20,000 nt of DNA from an uncultured virus (IMG/VR IMGVR_UViG_3300025936_000003) (taxonomy: Duplodnaviria > Heunggongvirae > Uroviricota > Caudoviricetes). How positions within the stretch are numbered: the stretch's first letter is position 1; every line of letters begins with the position of its first letter. Positions 289 to 18,676 of this stretch are shown here, one piece after another. The position numbers were made by a program, and so were the translations under genes. The stretch is from the IMG/VR virus record IMGVR_UViG_3300025936_000003; one strand, given 5' to 3'. The notes beneath the pieces are model-generated. The model did not search any database. It was not told the DNA's origin and worked only from the letters and a program-made list of their open reading frames with translations.

Positions 289-458
289 TGAATACCTTCG
301 ACATCTTACTCCTTTTGTTCGCGGGACTGATAATACTGCCCATCATGACTTACATGGTGGTGAAATTTGGTGCGGCCGGCTATTTTAGGGCGCGCCGCAG
401 AGAACAGAACAGACAAAACACCGAGAAAGGAAACCTAAATGAGTCGTGCCAAAAGTGA
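288..458 (+). CDS. Small single-pass membrane protein, 56 aa (not in ORF track)
   Basis: ATG at 288 overlaps the upstream TAA (TAATG). Translation MNTFDILLLLFAGLIILPIMTYMVVKFGAAGYFRARRREQNRQNTEKGNLNESCQK ends at TGA 456-458: a hydrophobic helix followed by a basic patch. Confidence 0.65.
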   Translation: MNTFDILLLLFAGLIILPIMTYMVVKFGAAGYFRARRREQNRQNTEKGNLNESCQK

Positions 459-1752
459 AAAACGGCGTTACACGAACGCCCGGGAGCAGGCGAACAAGCA
501 ATCGCTGGGCTTTGTTCCTGCATACCTAAAGCTGCCGAAGGGTGCCAGCCTCTTCAAACCCAAAGCAGGGGTCATGCTCTTGGATATACTGCCCTTCGAA
601 GCAGGCAAGGGCAATCCAAATGCAGACGAAGGGATGCTACACTGGGAGAGGACTTTCAGTGCCCACCGCGGCATCGGAGCCAACAGTGACAGTTTCCTCT
701 GCCCGCGACTGCTAAACAAGAAGCCGTGTCCCATCTGCGAACACCGCCTTCACCTGGTGAAGGCCGGGGACGAGGACGACGAGGATCTCATCAAGGATCT
801 CTCGCCGAAGACCCGTCAGCTGTTCAACGTCATCAACCTCAAGGATCCGGACAAGGGAGTTCAGATTTGGGACATGTCCTACTTCCTGTTCGGCGAGACG
901 CTTTACAAGCGGCTGCGGGATGCCGACGAGGGCGACGAGTGGGAGAACTTCTTCTTCCTAGAGGGCGGGCTAACACTAAAGATCGGCTTCAGTGAGCGGT
1001 CCTTTGGTGGTGCATCCTTCCACGAGGTGGACACCATCGACTTCAAGCCTCGCAAGCGGGATTACGATGACGACATCCTGGAGCAGGTTCACGTCCTGGA
1101 CGACTTACTTGTCGTTCCTGAGTATGACGAGCTCAAAGAGACCTTCCTTGAGACTACCGAGGACGAACCCAAGAAGGGCAAGCGCAGCAAGGACGATGAT
1201 GATGACGATGATGATGAACCAAAGTCAAAACGCCGTCATGCAGACGATGATGACGATGATGATGATGACGATGATGACGAGCCCAAGGGCAAAAAGCGTC
1301 ATGCAGACGATGACGATGACGATGATGACGATGATGAACCCAAGGGCAAGAAAGCAGCTCGCAACGGGGACGATGACGATGACGATGAGGTTGACGAGCC
1401 GAAGAAAAAGTCCTCCAAGGCTGACGACGACGATGACGACGATGACGATGATGAACCCAAGGGCAAGAAAAAGACTCCCAGTGACGATGACGACGACTGG
1501 GATGACGTAGATGACGATGATGACGATGAGCCCAAGGGCAAAAAGAAGCCGGCCGATGACGACGATGATGATTCGGACGACGATGACGATGAGCCCAAGG
1601 ACAAGAAAAAGAAGAACCAGTTCGCCAAGCAGAAGGGCGACAAGGGCTGGGACAAGGACGATGACGATGATGACGATGACGAGCCTAAAAAGAAGAAAAA
1701 GGTCGCCGCGTCCGCCGATGACGACGATGATTCGGACGACGATGACGACTGA
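439..1752 (+). CDS. gp32-like single-stranded DNA-binding protein with very long acidic/basic tail
   Basis: SD GAAAGGA upstream. Contains H...CP...CPICE Zn-type ligands, RQLFNVINLKDPDKGVQIW and a GLTLKI motif as in T4 gp32-like SSBs, plus an acidic C-terminus. It sits between the UvsY-like and RecA-like genes. Confidence 0.8.
   Translation: MSRAKSEKRRYTNAREQANKQSLGFVPAYLKLPKGASLFKPKAGVMLLDILPFEAGKGNPNADEGMLHWERTFSAHRGIGANSDSFLCPRLLNKKPCPICEHRLHLVKAGDEDDEDLIKDLSPKTRQLFNVINLKDPDKGVQIWDMSYFLFGETLYKRLRDADEGDEWENFFFLEGGLTLKIGFSERSFGGASFHEVDTIDFKPRKRDYDDDILEQVHVLDDLLVVPEYDELKETFLETTEDEPKKGKRSKDDDDDDDDEPKSKRRHADDDDDDDDDDDDEPKGKKRHADDDDDDDDDDEPKGKKAARNGDDDDDDEVDEPKKKSSKADDDDDDDDDDEPKGKKKTPSDDDDDWDDVDDDDDDEPKGKKKPADDDDDDSDDDDDEPKDKKKKNQFAKQKGDKGWDKDDDDDDDDEPKKKKKVAASADDDDDSDDDDD
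1165..1749 (+). repeat. Coding low-complexity tandem repeat: 9 x EPK + Lys-rich linker + poly-Asp (GAT/GAC runs)
   Basis: Nine EPK units are separated by Asp runs. DNA-level repeats include cgtcatgcagacgatga (twice) and gatgattcggacgacgatgacga (twice). Confidence 0.95.
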
Positions 1753-5022: not shown

Positions 5023-5614
5023 GGCCGCGAAGGGATCAGACTTCGAGCGCGAGTTGTGCAAGCGTCTCTCCTTGTGGTGGACAGATGGTGAGAGAAACGA
5101 TATATTTTGGCGCACCTCCCAATCAGGTGGGCGTGCTACCCAGAGGTCAAAGAAGGGAGAGACCACGTTTGGAAGCTACGGGGATCTGACAGCGATTGAC
5201 CCCATTGGCTCTCCACTCATTAAGATGTTCACGATCGAGTTGAAGCGTGGATCCTCATACGGCACGCCGGGTGACCTGCTCGACTTCAAACCAATCAATT
5301 CAAAGCACCCTTGGGTGGTGTGTCTCAAGCAAGCGATTCGTAGTCATGAACAAGCAGGTAGTCTCGCTTGGATGATGATTTGCAGACGAGACCATCGCCT
5401 GCCGATCGTGTATCTAGAAGCGAGGATCCTTAGGATGTTGAGAGGCGACAGCGGTCCAATATCAAGTGACTCCAATTTCGTGAAATTCTATTTGACCATT
5501 AAGCAGGAGTCCCTGGGATTCGACCGTATCTGCTTCACAGGGCTCCCACTAGAATCCTTCCTTGAATCCATTAGTCCCAAACAGATAATAAGAACGGTCA
5601 AAGGCTACAAATGA
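5015..5614 (+). CDS. Holliday junction resolvase, Hjc-like PD-(D/E)xK nuclease
   Basis: KGSDFERELCK, F.R...SGG, GDL and IELK motifs; recombination-module context. Confidence 0.8.
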   Translation: MPKAAKGSDFERELCKRLSLWWTDGERNDIFWRTSQSGGRATQRSKKGETTFGSYGDLTAIDPIGSPLIKMFTIELKRGSSYGTPGDLLDFKPINSKHPWVVCLKQAIRSHEQAGSLAWMMICRRDHRLPIVYLEARILRMLRGDSGPISSDSNFVKFYLTIKQESLGFDRICFTGLPLESFLESISPKQIIRTVKGYK

Positions 5615-5982
5615 GCAAACCCAAACTCAAAGCACTAGGGAAAAAAGTCACCAAGTTTGAGGGTCTGGAAGTATTCCCAGCCCCAAGCGGGATCCAGAGA
5701 GTCATCTGCACCTCCGATGAGGTGACTGCTCTGTGCCCGGTGACTGGACAGCCAGATTGGTACATCGTCAAGATCGACTACATCCCTCAAAAGCTCTGCG
5801 TTGAATCGAAAACACTCAAGCTCTACCTGCAATCCTTCCGGCAGCAAGGTCACTTTTGTGAAAGGTTCTCCAGCATCATTGCTCACCAGATCCTGAAGAC
5901 CCTCGAACCCTTGAAAGTGTCAGTCACAGTCACCCAGAAACCACGCGGCGGTATCGCCATCGAAGCCACCACCTGCTTATGA
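5611..5982 (+). CDS. queF: PreQ0 reductase QueF (unimodular T-fold)
   Basis: EVTALCPVTGQPD (catalytic Cys/Asp), QueF motif ESKTLKLYL and C-terminal PRGGI; adjacent to queC. Confidence 0.9.
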   Translation: MSKPKLKALGKKVTKFEGLEVFPAPSGIQRVICTSDEVTALCPVTGQPDWYIVKIDYIPQKLCVESKTLKLYLQSFRQQGHFCERFSSIIAHQILKTLEPLKVSVTVTQKPRGGIAIEATTCL

Positions 5983-6665
5983 AAAAAGTCTTAGTCCTCA
6001 CTTCGGGCGGAGTAGACAGCACCACACTCCTTTACCATCACGTTAAGGGAGGTGACGAAGTCCAAGCCATCGCTTTCAACTATGGCCAGCGGCACAGCAA
6101 AGAACTTGAATATGCTCATCTCAATGCGAACCTGTTGCAAGTCCCTTTCACACTGGTAGACGCATTATTCCTGGGGCGGATCTTGACCGGCAGCTCGCAG
6201 ACCGATGCATCGGTTCCCGTGCCGCAGGGTCACTACTCTGAAAACTCGATGAAGGCGACTGTCGTTCCCAACAGGAACATGATCCTCTTGTCCATCGCTA
6301 TCGGCGCCGCTATCGCAAAGAAGCTGGATTATGTCGCCTACGCTGCCCACGCGGGCGACCATGCCATCTACCCAGACTGCCGACCAGAGTTCGCCAGGGA
6401 CATGGGCAGGGTGGCAAGCAAGTGCGATTGGAGGCCCATAAAGCTCTTGAGGCCATTCGTCAAGATGAGCAAAGCCTGGATCATTGGTCACGGGAAAGAG
6501 TTGGGTGTGGACTATTCCAAAACCTGGAGTTGCTACGAGGGAGGCGCTTTGCACTGTGGCCGCTGTGGAACTTGTGTCGAACGGATTCTCTCCTTCAAAG
6601 AAGCGAAGGTTGACGACCCTACCACCTACCAAGATCCAGAGTTCGCAAAGCAATACGAGAAATGA
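5979..6665 (+). CDS. queC: 7-cyano-7-deazaguanine synthase QueC
   Basis: PP-loop SGGVDSTT, YGQRH..E, VPNRNMILLS, YPDCRPEF and Zn site TWSCY...HCGRCGTCVER. Confidence 0.96.
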   Translation: MKKVLVLTSGGVDSTTLLYHHVKGGDEVQAIAFNYGQRHSKELEYAHLNANLLQVPFTLVDALFLGRILTGSSQTDASVPVPQGHYSENSMKATVVPNRNMILLSIAIGAAIAKKLDYVAYAAHAGDHAIYPDCRPEFARDMGRVASKCDWRPIKLLRPFVKMSKAWIIGHGKELGVDYSKTWSCYEGGALHCGRCGTCVERILSFKEAKVDDPTTYQDPEFAKQYEK

Positions 6666-7234
6666 TTGATCTTGAACAAGAGCAGCAAGAGATTGAGCAT
6701 CTTCAATCTCGCCTCACACTGTCGAAGCAGACTGTCGAGAAAGAAGAGAAAGAGCTGAAGGGAGCCGAGCAGAAGTTGAAGGATACTCAGACTGCCCAGG
6801 AGATCCTTCAACTTCTCGCCCAGGCTGTTCAGCAGAAGGCCCATCAACGCATCAGCGAGGTTGTCAGTTCTTGCCTTTCGACAGTGTTTGAAGATGAGGC
6901 GTATAGATTCAAAATTGAATTCGAACGGAAACGTGGAAGGACCGAAGCCAGATTGAGATTTACCCGTAGGGAGTTAGAAGTGGATCCACTCACGGCAGCA
7001 GGTGGTGGAGTAGTTGACGTGGCTTCATTTGCTCTGCGTTCGGCTTGTCTTATCCTACACCGCCCTCGACTCAGTCGTGTTATCGTCATGGATGAACCTT
7101 TCAAGTTCTTGAGTGCTCAATACCGAGAAAGAATTCGATCCATGTTAGAGCAACTCTCAAAAGAATTGGACATCCAGTTCATCATGGTTACCCATATCGA
7201 GGAACTCGAAACGGGAAAGATCTATGACCTCTGA
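6662..7234 (+). CDS. SbcC/Rad50 (gp46-like) ATPase, C-terminal half only
   Basis: Coiled coil followed by a degenerate ABC signature (AAGGG), Walker B VIVMDEPF and H-switch FIMVTH. No Walker A. Confidence 0.8.
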   Translation: MIDLEQEQQEIEHLQSRLTLSKQTVEKEEKELKGAEQKLKDTQTAQEILQLLAQAVQQKAHQRISEVVSSCLSTVFEDEAYRFKIEFERKRGRTEARLRFTRRELEVDPLTAAGGGVVDVASFALRSACLILHRPRLSRVIVMDEPFKFLSAQYRERIRSMLEQLSKELDIQFIMVTHIEELETGKIYDL

Positions 7235-13036: not shown

Positions 13037-13178
13037 GCCGTTCTCGAAGCCTGATCCGCTGGCCGGTTTGCTGGTCGAAGAACTGAACGCGCCATCGGAT
13101 TCTCTGATTGTTGATGACATTGGCGTTGAGTGGTGAGGAGCCGTCGAATGGTCGGAATTCATAAAACCCAGGGATCAT
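12789..13178 (-). CDS. Possible hypothetical protein overlapping the FN3 gene (129 aa)
   Basis: Starts 10 nt after the upstream stop and fills an otherwise unexplained gap. The first ~45 codons have protein-like composition with C-ending codons (TTC GAC, ATC AAC, ACC GGC). Confidence 0.45.
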   Translation of the reverse strand: MIPGFYEFRPFDGSSPLNANVINNQRIRWRVQFFDQQTGQRIRLRERRGATEPFITVAGASWYGKFVQLVPKRNGRNGQPGVEPKPNPVNERHGTEVILRDGQSAVALGSGSVNAEYTDQRNGAGEHQS

Positions 13179-13188
13179 TTTTCATAGG

Positions 13189-13326
13189 TTATGTTGCCAG
13201 GTTTCCCAAGCCAAGCCACTCGGCAAACTTTATTGCGGCTGCAACCACGACCGTCATCACCACTGCAATGACCAATATGCCAATGGCTACAGTCGTCCAA
13301 TCCCAATCAGGTTGCTTGTCGTTCAT
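13189..13326 (-). CDS. Small single-pass membrane protein (45 aa)
   Basis: ATGA overlap at 13323-13326. MNDKQPDWDWTTVAIGILVIAVVMTVVVAAAIKFAEWLGLGNLAT. Confidence 0.65.
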   Translation of the reverse strand: MNDKQPDWDWTTVAIGILVIAVVMTVVVAAAIKFAEWLGLGNLAT

Positions 13327-14168
13327 GGTAGCGTCGTCACCCGGACCTTGTGCCAGTTCGTGTAAAGATTGCCGCACTCCGTGGCAGTCAGCTCGCGCGA
13401 GTAAATCAGGAGCGACTCCAAGTTGCCCAGGAAGAATTGTGTCGTCCCACCAAAGGAGCCGATCACGTTGATACCAATGTCGGCCACCAACGCCGTGGCC
13501 GGGTTCCCAATATCCGAGATATTCTGCCGAAATTGGGCCTTGTTCCCCGACGAGTAACGAAAGAATCCGACGCCAGCATTTGTGCCAGAGAAACTGTTCG
13601 GGTTCGACGATGGGAAGGCTGTCCCGTCATACTCGAACCACTGGGCCCCTGGAGTGTCAATCCTGATTCCTCCAGCACCCGCCCCTGTTTTACTAATTAG
13701 ATATTTCGTGCCTGAACCGCCGTTGTAGGACCAGAGCCCAATCACCGTGAAACCGCTGGTTATACTGAGCGTGATCGTGTTGCTGATGCTGAGCGTGTCC
13801 GTAGTCCCATCAAAAACCAAAGCGGGTTTTGCCCCTGCTGCGTTGGTTCTCCAGGTCGGCCTCGCTGTACCTGATGCTGTGGCGACGTTTCCAGACTTCA
13901 GATCGACCCAAGTAGAGACTGGGTCACCGTCGTTCAGGGTTGTGATCGAATCTGCTGTCCAGATATACACCAGTCCTGAGATCGTGTTTGGGTATCCAAT
14001 TGGATCAGACGCCGCTGAGCCACCTAGCTTCATGCGTGGTCCAGGCACGATTGTCGTTGACGCCTGAACCGTTCCGATCCTTTGCGGCAACCAAGTCTCC
14101 GGCACACTGACGATGATTGTGCTGGCCAGAGTGCAAACCGCAAAGAACTTGACGAATGGATTCTTCAT
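13323..14168 (-). CDS. Signal-peptide protein with LamG/concanavalin-A-like lectin domain
   Basis: N-terminal MKNPFVKFFAVCTLASTIIVSV, then W.AD.I....G..V..W.D, P.W, FDGT.D.L and F.G......IYSREL motifs typical of phage LamG-like domains. Confidence 0.75.
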   Translation of the reverse strand: MKNPFVKFFAVCTLASTIIVSVPETWLPQRIGTVQASTTIVPGPRMKLGGSAASDPIGYPNTISGLVYIWTADSITTLNDGDPVSTWVDLKSGNVATASGTARPTWRTNAAGAKPALVFDGTTDTLSISNTITLSITSGFTVIGLWSYNGGSGTKYLISKTGAGAGGIRIDTPGAQWFEYDGTAFPSSNPNSFSGTNAGVGFFRYSSGNKAQFRQNISDIGNPATALVADIGINVIGSFGGTTQFFLGNLESLLIYSRELTATECGNLYTNWHKVRVTTLP

Positions 14169-16493: not shown

Positions 16494-17600
16494 TCATTTG
16501 ATGGCGAAGAAAGCTGAGAAGGTTGAACCATTCGGAGGGTCCGACTGAACATCCACGAAGCCATCATATTTGGTGGCGATCGTCCTCACCGTCGATAGTC
16601 CAATACCTGATCCCTTACCAACAGGCTTGGTGCTGAAGAAGGTCTCAAACATCTTCCCCATCACTTCAGGGGGCACCCCGCTGCCGTCATCCCTAACAGA
16701 AATCTTGACGAACTTGCCTGTGTATAAAAAACCACCCACGTTAGGTTTGTAATCTCGGATGTCAACATCTTCAGCTCTCACCTCAAGATGAGTGGCCCCG
16801 GCATCCTTTGAGTTGATACAGAAATTCAGAATGACTTGACGGATGACAGTTGGGTCAATCGCAATCACCGCTTCTGTCGTGACCTTAGAAGTGATCGTGG
16901 CTGTGGGGATGATACCAGGAAGGAATTGAATAAATTCTAAAACGACCTGGCGCATTGAAACATTCTCTTTGTGCCCGTTCCTCCCGGACACGAAAAGCAT
17001 CATCCTGTCAATCATCGCGACGATCCTATCGGCCGATCGCTGAGCCCCCTTGAGGAGTCCCATCTGGGCCTCAGGAACGTATCTCTCAAAAAGGTGGAGA
17101 ATCCCCATGATAGGAGTGAGCATGTTTCGCATGTCATGGGCAAGACCTGAAGCCACTTCTCCTACCGCTGCCTGGCGCTGAGCCTCCAGAGCGATGCTCT
17201 GAGCTTCCAGAGCCTCTCTCTGCGATTGCTGCAAGTTTCTCAATCTCTCTCGATCACGAATAGCCCGGCGGATTGCCCAGCGCAGACGGTGAGGACGATC
17301 CTTCAGCATCACGTCATCAATGTCCTGTGCCTCCAAAGGCGGAATCATATCATCGGTGATGGTTCCTGAAAAGATCAGGACAGGGATTTCGGGCCACTTC
17401 TTGCGTGCTTCGACGGCAGCGGCAATCCCACTCCAACCTGGAATGGCATAGTCCAAGACAAGAATATCGAAAGGTCCCTTATCCAGTGCCTCACTGAATT
17501 CCGTCTTATTCTTAGCCACAACCAATTCAGCCCCCTCAGGCATAAAGCGCCCAGTGAGAACGACATCAAAGTCGGCATCCTCCAGCAATAGTATTCTCAT
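16494..17600 (-). CDS. Hybrid histidine kinase (receiver-HisKA-HATPase), no sensor domain
   Basis: Receiver: RILLLED, LVLDYAIPG (phospho-Asp), IFSG, LKD. H-box LAHDMRNMLTPI, N-box QVILNFCINSKDA, G1 DDGSG, F/G2 FETFFSTKPVGKGSGIGL, and GSTF. Confidence 0.95.
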   Translation of the reverse strand: MRILLLEDADFDVVLTGRFMPEGAELVVAKNKTEFSEALDKGPFDILVLDYAIPGWSGIAAAVEARKKWPEIPVLIFSGTITDDMIPPLEAQDIDDVMLKDRPHRLRWAIRRAIRDRERLRNLQQSQREALEAQSIALEAQRQAAVGEVASGLAHDMRNMLTPIMGILHLFERYVPEAQMGLLKGAQRSADRIVAMIDRMMLFVSGRNGHKENVSMRQVVLEFIQFLPGIIPTATITSKVTTEAVIAIDPTVIRQVILNFCINSKDAGATHLEVRAEDVDIRDYKPNVGGFLYTGKFVKISVRDDGSGVPPEVMGKMFETFFSTKPVGKGSGIGLSTVRTIATKYDGFVDVQSDPPNGSTFSAFFAIK

Positions 17601-17929
17601 TTTAAGTGCCCCTCTGGATCTACCTGAGATTTCCTCAGCAGATCTGTTGCATCCCTATCCCGCTTCCCCTCCCTCCATGTATTGAATGCTTTGCTCCTAA
17701 ATCCACCTAATGCTGTGAGTGCCGCAACACCACAATCACAAATGATCAGAATGGACCAGCTGGCAAAGGTGGTATCTCCTGCCTTCACCAGAGCGAGGGC
17801 TCCCACCTTCAAACAGATTAAGGTGGGACACAGAACTGAGATTGCCCCATCAATGACCATAGGAGTCAGATGAGGCAGCTCCCTACGAATGATTTCTGTT
17901 ACATGGCCCATAAGAAAAGGTTCTGTCAC
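17597..17929 (-). CDS. Small two-TM membrane protein, holin-like (110 aa)
   Basis: Two hydrophobic segments and a charged C-tail. GTG start with an AGAGGG SD; alternative ATG at 17911. Its stop overlaps the kinase ATG (ATGA). Confidence 0.55.
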   Translation of the reverse strand: MTEPFLMGHVTEIIRRELPHLTPMVIDGAISVLCPTLICLKVGALALVKAGDTTFASWSILIICDCGVAALTALGGFRSKAFNTWREGKRDRDATDLLRKSQVDPEGHLK

Positions 17930-18033
17930 CGTTACCCTCTACAGGAGGGAACTGACAACGGGAAACGATACTCTAGGAAAACTGAACGTGAAAACCAGAG
18001 TACCAAAACCATTAGTCCAGTCCGGTGACAGAA
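17921..18033 (-). ncRNA. Putative cis-regulatory three-way-junction RNA occluding the SD and start codon
   Basis: Perfect 11-bp inverted repeat (17921-17931 / 18023-18033) encloses a long G-U-rich hairpin and a CCCUC/GAGGG hairpin. Confidence 0.65.
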
Positions 18034-18038
18034 GTTGT

Positions 18039-18221
18039 TCACAACGGATCTCGAGGTTGAGCTTCAGGCTTCGAGAAGACCTCCTTCTCGTGTGCTTGGT
18101 AGGCTGCTTCACCTTCCGGAGTCAGTTCTCCGTTCTTCCTCAGGGTGTCCACCCACGATGGGGCGTTGCGGAGGATCCAACGGGCCGTTTCCAGCAGTGC
18201 GAGTAATTCAGCTTCTTTCAT
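18039..18221 (-). CDS. Small hypothetical protein (60 aa)
   Basis: ATGA overlap with the lipoprotein gene; amphipathic helical sequence. Confidence 0.7.
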   Translation of the reverse strand: MKEAELLALLETARWILRNAPSWVDTLRKNGELTPEGEAAYQAHEKEVFSKPEAQPRDPL

Positions 18222-18676
18222 GGTACCTTCGCTTTCCTTGTGGCTTCTGCCAGGTGTTTAGATGCGGATAGCAAAGCATCGTCTACGAGTTTCAGCGCCG
18301 CCTTCAACTTATCCCCGTTGGTGGCACTCCTTTCCTTTTGGTAGTCGGCGATGGCCGCCGACAACTCATCCAACCACTTCGGCCCGTTCCTGCGAACCTC
18401 CTCAGCCGCTTTGTGGATACCAGGACTGAGTGCTTTGAGGGTCTCTTCGTTGTGAGCCTCAATCGTCATCAGTCCGTCGAATACATCCAGCGCGATCTTG
18501 CGGGTGTTCTGCGCGGTGACTACGAGCACGTCGGCCATCTCATTCGTGTTGTAGACCCCTGTGGAGGGGTTGTATTGACCCTTTCCAGCAAGACACCCGC
18601 TGTTACATCCAGCGATTGTCAACGCCATGACTACGATCACGAGACCTCCCATGATCCGTTGTTTGATTTGTTTCAT
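18218..18676 (-). CDS. Helical lipoprotein (152 aa), possibly lysis/spanin-associated
   Basis: GAAAGG SD; basic n-region, hydrophobic h-region and lipobox TIAG-C; mostly helical mature part. Confidence 0.75.
   Translation of the reverse strand: MKQIKQRIMGGLVIVVMALTIAGCNSGCLAGKGQYNPSTGVYNTNEMADVLVVTAQNTRKIALDVFDGLMTIEAHNEETLKALSPGIHKAAEEVRRNGPKWLDELSAAIADYQKERSATNGDKLKAALKLVDDALLSASKHLAEATRKAKVP

Follow-up and report, generated by a model that had tools for sequence, protein, structure and literature searches.

A branched RNA fold closing an intergenic gap in a phage cassette: a possible lineage-specific brake on translation

Described RNA structures and the phage cassette

In lambda S, which codes for a small phage membrane protein, the sdi hairpin lies close to two starts in the same frame; in a dual start of this type the second in-frame start is conserved and the extension basic. 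In phage T4, leaders silence gene e on long transcripts; on read-through transcripts of e, soc, 49 and I-TevI, genes that may be harmful, a leader helix sequesters the initiation region, and a late promoter inside the 5' arm of the helix makes a short, translatable RNA that lacks it (PMC3014915). Between operon genes, melting of structure by upstream ribosomes, which unwind a helix that would otherwise prevent de novo initiation at the next gene, is the favoured mechanism of translational coupling, and short intergenic distances are optimal (PMC7538156). Operon stoichiometry can also be set by intergenic stem-loops, as in the cip-cel operon, where stable stem-loops (−6.6 to −31.8 kcal/mol) lie just 3' of operon genes and are gained and lost between relatives (PMC4423207). 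The minimal RNase III helix is 11 bp, and where there is an internal loop a protective 3' hairpin is left behind; T7 R1.1-type substrates have an 11-bp helix above an internal loop and coaxial helices (PMC1540722).

The RNA element described here has points of likeness to each of these systems. As in the T4 leaders, a phage helix would sequester an initiation region on a read-through transcript; unlike them, the element is branched, is 113 nt long, stops 9 nt before the conserved ATG of the gene that follows and has no late promoter that could be seen. Similarly to the cip-cel stem-loops it stands just 3' of an operon gene; it is more stable than these and branched. It shares the helix above an internal loop and the coaxial helices of the R1.1-type substrates, but its hairpin P2 does not follow the proximal-box preferences of the E. 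coli enzyme. Compared with lambda S, the upstream start is non-conserved and its extension, TEPFL, is acidic and not basic.

The element lies in the window, the whole stretch of 20,000 nt that was analysed, which is part of a tailed phage with recombination, nuclease and QueF/QueC genes on the plus strand and tail genes on the minus strand. Between two PHROG-384 virion genes on the minus strand is placed a cassette of, in order, a 152-aa predicted lipoprotein (18218..18676, minus strand; the lipobox-like Cys of this ORF was read by eye), a 60-aa protein (18039..18221, minus strand; TGA stop at 18041-18039, 5 nt before helix P1 of the element), the RNA element, a 104-aa two-helix membrane protein of an unnamed family (17597..17911, minus strand; conserved start ATG 17911) and a 368-aa hybrid kinase lacking a sensor (16494..17600, minus strand; receiver-HisKA-HATPase by Pfam), which overlaps the membrane gene by 4 nt. 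The lipoprotein has no Pfam or PHROG match and its homologue search gave 12 matches, its own cluster among them; in the related tail operon L006 a homologue of the 60-aa protein also comes after the lipoprotein. The receiver Asp and H-box His of the kinase are invariant in an alignment of 10 sequences. The kinase is only 25–29% identical to the kinases of relatives compared with 65–87% for the membrane protein, and the Atlas gave generic kinase clusters only for the kinase and nothing for the membrane protein. Elsewhere in the window, the QueF- and QueC-like genes (5611-6665, plus strand) suggest 7-deazaguanine DNA modification, and an SSB-like protein (439-1752, plus strand) with a weak match to PHROG 224 has an Asp/Lys repeat tail of about 200 residues.

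Homologues of the membrane gene were compared at 12 distinct loci (L055, L057-L063, L065-L067, L072). Duplicates were counted once (L003/4/55/56/70/71; L063/64; and, for the tail operons discussed below, L135/136), and L073, which begins inside the gene, and L074, a spurious 20-residue match from a GTDB scan, were left out. The coupling of membrane gene and kinase proposed in the first-pass annotation is supported: a receiver-domain protein comes next, overlapping or within 2 nt, in 11 of the 12 loci, L057 being the exception and the Pfam matches of L058 and L060 lying below the curated cut-off. The same annotation called the membrane protein holin-like. The protein is modelled as a two-helix hydrophobic hairpin (pLDDT 77); a holin identity found no support, the protein having no Pfam match, only weak PHROGs of unknown function with no holin among them, and no viral fold match at E up to 0.001. 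An endolysin neighbour was not found, the next gene being the kinase. By position and predicted topology a holin is possible, and a role as membrane partner of the sensor-less kinase would fit the conserved coupling at least as well. The unnamed family is often found beside a lipoprotein and small amphipathic gene pair, among virion genes. Because of the receiver coupling, the setting among virion genes and the frequent presence of an apparently leaderless promoter of its own (see below), the cassette (16494-17911 in the window, and the 12 loci) is probably a mobile phage signalling cassette under various forms of control. It is this membrane family and receiver cassette under differing expression control, more than the fold itself, that gives the locus its interest, and the fold offers a simple handle for testing control of the cassette.

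The fold and its occurrence

On the minus strand the element is closed by P1, in which an 11-nt 5' arm (18023..18033) pairs with a 3' arm (17921..17931) that reaches from −20 to −10 relative to the family start and holds an in-frame, non-conserved GTG at 17929. Enclosed are P2 (17950..18022), an irregular hairpin consisting of a lower helix with a bulge, an internal loop, an upper helix of 10–11 bp and a U-rich apical loop (17994-17977), and P3 (17935..17949), a 5-bp hairpin that pairs the SD-like GAGGG (17939-17935). A 9-nt pyrimidine leader (17912..17920, minus strand), which is also a weak U-tract, separates the fold from the ATG. Considered as DNA, the element has terminal inverted repeats of 11 bp that are perfect, or of 18 bp at 83%. 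All helices were found where the first-pass annotation had placed them, and its count of 22 pairs in P2, six of them G-U, is correct in its own register (−44.3); the minimum free energy register differs and has 23 P2 pairs and five G-U in all. An ATG ORF of 26 codons within the fold (17932..18012, minus strand) is probably due to chance, such an ORF being present in 17% of shuffles, and a leader peptide was rejected for this reason. Counted to the ATG the intergenic gap has 127 nt, of which the fold covers 113; counted to the GUG it has 109 nt. A nominal 160-nt gap (13162-13323) contains a small ORF. A small ORF with a single transmembrane segment (13189-13377, minus strand) is located among the tail genes.

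The folding energy of the minus strand, −47.6 kcal/mol (z −5.86), was reached by none of 200 shuffles, and z is −4.37 when flanks are included (146 nt). As had been claimed, the plus strand folds less well (−36.7 kcal/mol, z −3.58). The strand difference of −10.9 kcal/mol was matched by 18 of 1000 shuffles and becomes small under DNA parameters (−20.9 versus −18.6). Folded by itself, the interior is better than all of 1000 shuffles (z −4.0), and 1 of 1000 reached the observed energy when P1 was kept fixed, so the signal does not come from the 11-bp closing repeat alone. The element ranked first among 996 grid windows, on a grid that happened to coincide with its exact ends, and z is sensitive to boundaries, falling to −2.8 with a shift of 6 nt and to −2.5 with one of 9 nt. 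Hairpins in coding regions of the same phage (n=3) have z values of −4.0 to −4.5; they are located at 1745-1857, 5640-5752 and 6740-6852 on the plus strand, a short way into the recA-like, queF and SbcC-like genes, and the queF hairpin is closed by the same 6-bp core as P1, probably via Val-Thr codons. No Rfam match was found for the element with covariance models of Rfam 15 at E up to 5, as the first-pass annotation had expected of an RNA without recognised family; by inspection alone, readings as a hammerhead-, attC-, SECIS- or pRNA-like element were set aside on the general features of these RNAs. On these results we judge the fold to be real, biased to the mRNA strand and without known family, with a residual chance that it is an unselected extreme.

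Structural conservation in homologs, on which the first-pass annotation had made its reading depend, was not found: the fold is present in 0 of the 12 homologous loci, of which L058 has only 91 nt upstream, and none of the 12 matches Rfam at gathering score. The region is found at 100% identity on two viral contigs, in the same orientation on both. Pattern scans of viral contigs returned, besides these two identical copies, 45 unrelated stretches for the P3 15-mer (47 in all), 41 unrelated matches for the P1 arm pair (43 in all) and five for the P2 upper helix (seven in all). Searches with the RNA gave five short matches at E 8 among annotated phages and two at E 0.1 among plasmids, both at chance level. 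Of seven records examined directly, two have identical RNA copies and five have none. All copies of the RNA found are identical, without variation in any pair. A literature search of an open library found no prior description of such an RNA. As far as these sequence collections reach, the fold is known from one phage population only and is lineage-specific. The P1 pattern also caught an unrelated long, near-perfect inverted repeat of −68 kcal/mol (L090:599-712), which is REP- or MITE-like.

Such a distribution raises the question of selection. The fold could be a neutral or near-neutral relic at a rearrangement junction of the cassette, i.e., a self-folding insertion, an inverted duplication or an invertible segment, or else the tail of a chance distribution, and an insertion of this type would be tolerated because the element loops itself out. 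The absence of the fold from all 12 homologous loci, and from L006 and L135 where the cassette genes abut, is in agreement with this, as are the shuffled gene order among relatives, the unequal identities of kinase and membrane protein, the perfect 11-bp terminal inverted repeat, the P1 3' arm that repeats codons 4–6 of the gene at 8 of 9 nt, and the dependence of z on the boundaries chosen. However, there is no target-site duplication of at least 4 nt, the pattern scans of viral contigs gave only identical or unrelated matches and thus no copies elsewhere, and 6 of 6 wobble positions work on the mRNA strand, which is expected once in 64 if random. When the element is flipped in silico, its promoter score is borderline at 9.2 (95th percentile, 9.4), and both other copies are oriented alike. 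A neutral origin is on this balance quite unlikely. An invertible promoter was rejected for its borderline score and the single orientation seen. Of the features of a MITE-type element, the inverted repeats are present, but neither a target-site duplication nor dispersed copies (viral contigs, annotated phages and plasmids) were found. That the element is instead a discrete small RNA, cut from the late transcript and acting in trans, e.g., as a decoy for a dsRNA-binding protein or a partner in the kinase pathway, is highly improbable. Its paired 5' and 3' ends, near-complete pairing and high stability are as in stable small RNAs; against it stand the lack of a family-type or sigma-70-type promoter at the 5' end and of any homologues or Rfam match.

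The start codon and access to it

The first-pass annotation had taken GUG 17929 as the start of the membrane gene, with GAGGG as its SD, and had viewed the locking of both as the point of the fold. The homologue search for the membrane protein gave 26 proteins, the window's own included. Among the other 25, 21 start at the position of ATG 17911, one starts three residues later and three have unrelated extensions; the TEPFL extension encoded from GTG 17929 is present in none (0/25). In DNA, the family start position holds ATG or GTG in 12 of 12 distinct homologous loci. As the family start is ATG 17911, the fold stops 9 nt short of the start and does not bury it, and neither the GUG start nor a locked SD and GUG could be upheld as a conserved feature. 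The analogy to the lambda sdi dual start likewise failed for want of a conserved upstream start. Judged by this comparison GUG 17929 is not a family feature. It may still be used, because GAGGG precedes the in-frame GTG by 5 nt while the ATG is without a correctly spaced SD, though several genes of the phage have one, and because gene callers picked GTG 17929 (P0001, P0048). The same two points, together with the stop of the internal ORF 2 nt before the GTG, would favour GAGGG/GUG 17929 as a real regulated start that P3 and P1 lock and that opens in response to a protein or ligand, or when the 26-codon ORF is translated; two forms of the protein might then be made, as in lambda S. This reading is very unlikely in view of the extension missing from all 25 homologues, the cost of opening the GUG through P3 alone, the absence of thermal opening and of a second state (both below), linkers of 0, 0 and 3 nt that leave no pocket, and an internal ORF at chance level whose ATG is buried. 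Stop-codon read-through was rejected, since it would add 9 residues only, and so was a recoded TAG, with which 2 of 29 genes end.

Opening positions −15 to +12 was computed to cost 14.1 kcal/mol at ATG 17911 and 19.2 kcal/mol at GTG 17929, compared with 3.4–14.8 (median 8.3) at 21 other starts. With a narrower footprint (−12 to +10) the cost at the ATG is 8.9, inside the 3.3–11.0 of other genes. Removal of the P1 5' arm (5' ends at 18025-17950) lowers the cost at the ATG to 5.4–8.1, so that access is regained with loss of the 5' arm as in the T4 leaders; P3 alone then keeps the GUG at about 10.5–12 kcal/mol. When 9, 11 or 13 nt past the upstream stop were held unpaired the cost at the ATG was 9.4, 5.5 and 7.5, respectively, whereas 5 or 7 nt gave no relief (15.4 and 13.3). 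A terminating ribosome would reach roughly that far.

Of the openers considered in the first-pass annotation, a thermometer finds no support in the computed melting, as P1 stays paired at 0.99 or more up to 80°C, the SD is unpaired at 0.01 at 37°C and 0.10 at 65°C, and the GUG at 0.00. Nor does a two-state switch, for the best alternative conformer, with the P1 5' arm bound to codons 4–6, has −43.8 against −56.1 kcal/mol. With linkers of 0, 0 and 3 nt, no aptamer-like core is present in the fold. The structure appears static, because there is no melting at physiological temperature and the alternative is 12.3 kcal/mol worse.

It is conceivable that the element is a lineage-specific, cis-acting intercistronic brake on the membrane protein, and through the 4-nt overlap on the kinase, on a long late transcript; we favour this reading tentatively, at somewhat less than an even chance. 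In the computed fold P1 pairs the nucleotides directly behind the upstream stop with those at −20 to −10 relative to the ATG and raises the cost of opening the initiation region, which it would occlude; ribosomes terminating at the 60-aa gene would unzip it briefly, and P3 would keep the SD-led GUG silent. Since P1 would be unzipped only briefly, synthesis of membrane protein and kinase is proposed to be low and tied to upstream translation. The brake would be static rather than a sensor, and the fold would stand where relatives have a promoter of their own or direct gene overlap. The proposal follows the melting mechanism of coupling (PMC7538156), in which short distances are optimal; here the distance is 127 nt, and coupling would be carried by the closing helix. 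A T4-type helix over SD and start is present for GUG 17929 and only partly for ATG 17911. As other ways in, an internal promoter, thermal opening and an alternative conformer are all lacking, which supports the brake. Damping of translation of specific genes would be favoured over full termination because the same strand carries essential tail genes further downstream. The geometry is consistent with a brake and does not discriminate, because any stem closing the whole intergenic gap would show the same. Against the brake, the cost at the ATG is ordinary with the narrower footprint, covering 5 or 7 nt past the stop brings no relief, the long P2 arm is not needed by the mechanism and is left unexplained, there is no homologous RNA, and coding hairpins of the same phage are close in z.

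The element is most likely an ordinary kind of translation brake, and probably not a new sensor. If so, it would add to the phage mRNA structures that limit the output of a potentially harmful membrane gene, and would be unusual among them for its size and for spanning the whole intergenic gap. Its significance is modest, because the fold is seen in one phage population only.

RNA-level readings and control in related loci

The element could also act on the RNA itself, as a leaky intrinsic terminator or as a stem-loop that protects 3' ends or is processed by a nuclease. The terminator would consist of P1 and the U-tract, with P2 and P3 as a pre-folded loop, and in each form the mRNA of the lipoprotein and 60-aa genes would be raised over that of membrane protein and kinase. 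We consider such a role fairly unlikely; it is compatible with the brake and not exclusive of it. The fold starts 5 nt after a stop, six of the eight nt starting 2 nt after P1 are U, and in L059 and L061 the same gene is preceded by terminator-like hairpins. Nevertheless, the element was not listed by a terminator scan, whose loop limit is 8 nt where the structured loop of the element has 91 nt; the U-run is preceded by CC and the U-tract is interrupted, and the downstream tail genes need read-through. A stabilising role would be in line with the setting of operon stoichiometry by intergenic stem-loops (PMC4423207). For processing, the P2 upper helix of 10–11 bp above an internal loop, 11 bp in the minimum free energy fold, fits the minimum of 11 bp for E. 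coli RNase III (PMC1540722), as does P1 with 10–11 bp. The RNase III-type site suggested in the first-pass annotation fits the E. coli boxes poorly, with positions inferred from PMC1540722: 0 of 4 registers in P2 avoid both inhibitory proximal-box positions, and the only one of 8 registers overall that does is at the outer end of P1. These E. coli rules may not be those of the host.

In the related loci the place of the fold is taken by other arrangements. A motif TTGC-N18-CA-N3-T (16-nt spacer) is present in 6 of the 12 loci (L057:539-573, L060:1023-1057, L065:127-161 and L067:262-296, as well as L058 and L063), ending 7, 10, 7, 11, 7 and 7 nt before the start, against a background of 19 in 90,966 positions. 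By the usual promoter geometry it would be a −35/−10 promoter giving a leaderless or near-leaderless mRNA, with a −10 box that starts with C rather than T. Leave-one-out scores of 15–22 bits exceed the 99.9th percentile in the window (5.8), in a test that is circular because the motif was drawn from the same loci. For two held-out proteins, P0015 and P0021, the N-terminal extension could result from translation of the motif with gaps of 6 and 7 nt, which is also true of 244 and 45 of 5000 shuffled peptides, respectively; in the same check P0020 was uninformative and the window's own extension incompatible. In L055 the preceding stop and the start of the membrane gene overlap, and in L072 the gap is 3 nt. 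Upstream of the membrane gene, L059 (1440-1520) and L061 (70-130) share a simple and strong GC-rich hairpin, homologous between the two, in which both arms carry changes; a short T-run comes after it, and it is terminator-like and has no Rfam match. Two related tail operons, L006 and L135, have abutting genes in the order membrane-lipoprotein-small-kinase with a different membrane family, and no comparable fold was seen in them. The element has no motif-type promoter (best 2.2 bits against a shuffle mean of 5.0), and a promoter scan listed no sigma-70 site in it; an internal promoter was rejected on this family-type score, which is below the shuffle mean, though a phage-specific promoter is conceivable.

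It is tempting to speculate further that the element is a ribosome-gated valve that loops out the 127-nt gap so that upstream translation licenses the membrane and kinase pair, that it replaced the leaderless promoter of relatives and that the long P2 arm binds some regulator. This more elaborate version is unlikely; if true, the cassette would have been rewired from independent transcription to late-operon coupling.

Promoter-like sequences were also noted elsewhere. A site of 10.1 bits with an 18-nt spacer (L006:2585-2624) lies in a 50-nt gap before the cassette of that phage. The best motif score in the window, 15.3 bits, is on the plus strand at 13202, inside the ORF at 13189-13377. On the plus strand the P1 arm at 17921-17931 looks like the extended −10 box in the homologues' promoter but lacks a −35 match (4.4 bits), and is possibly a trace of an inverted promoter.
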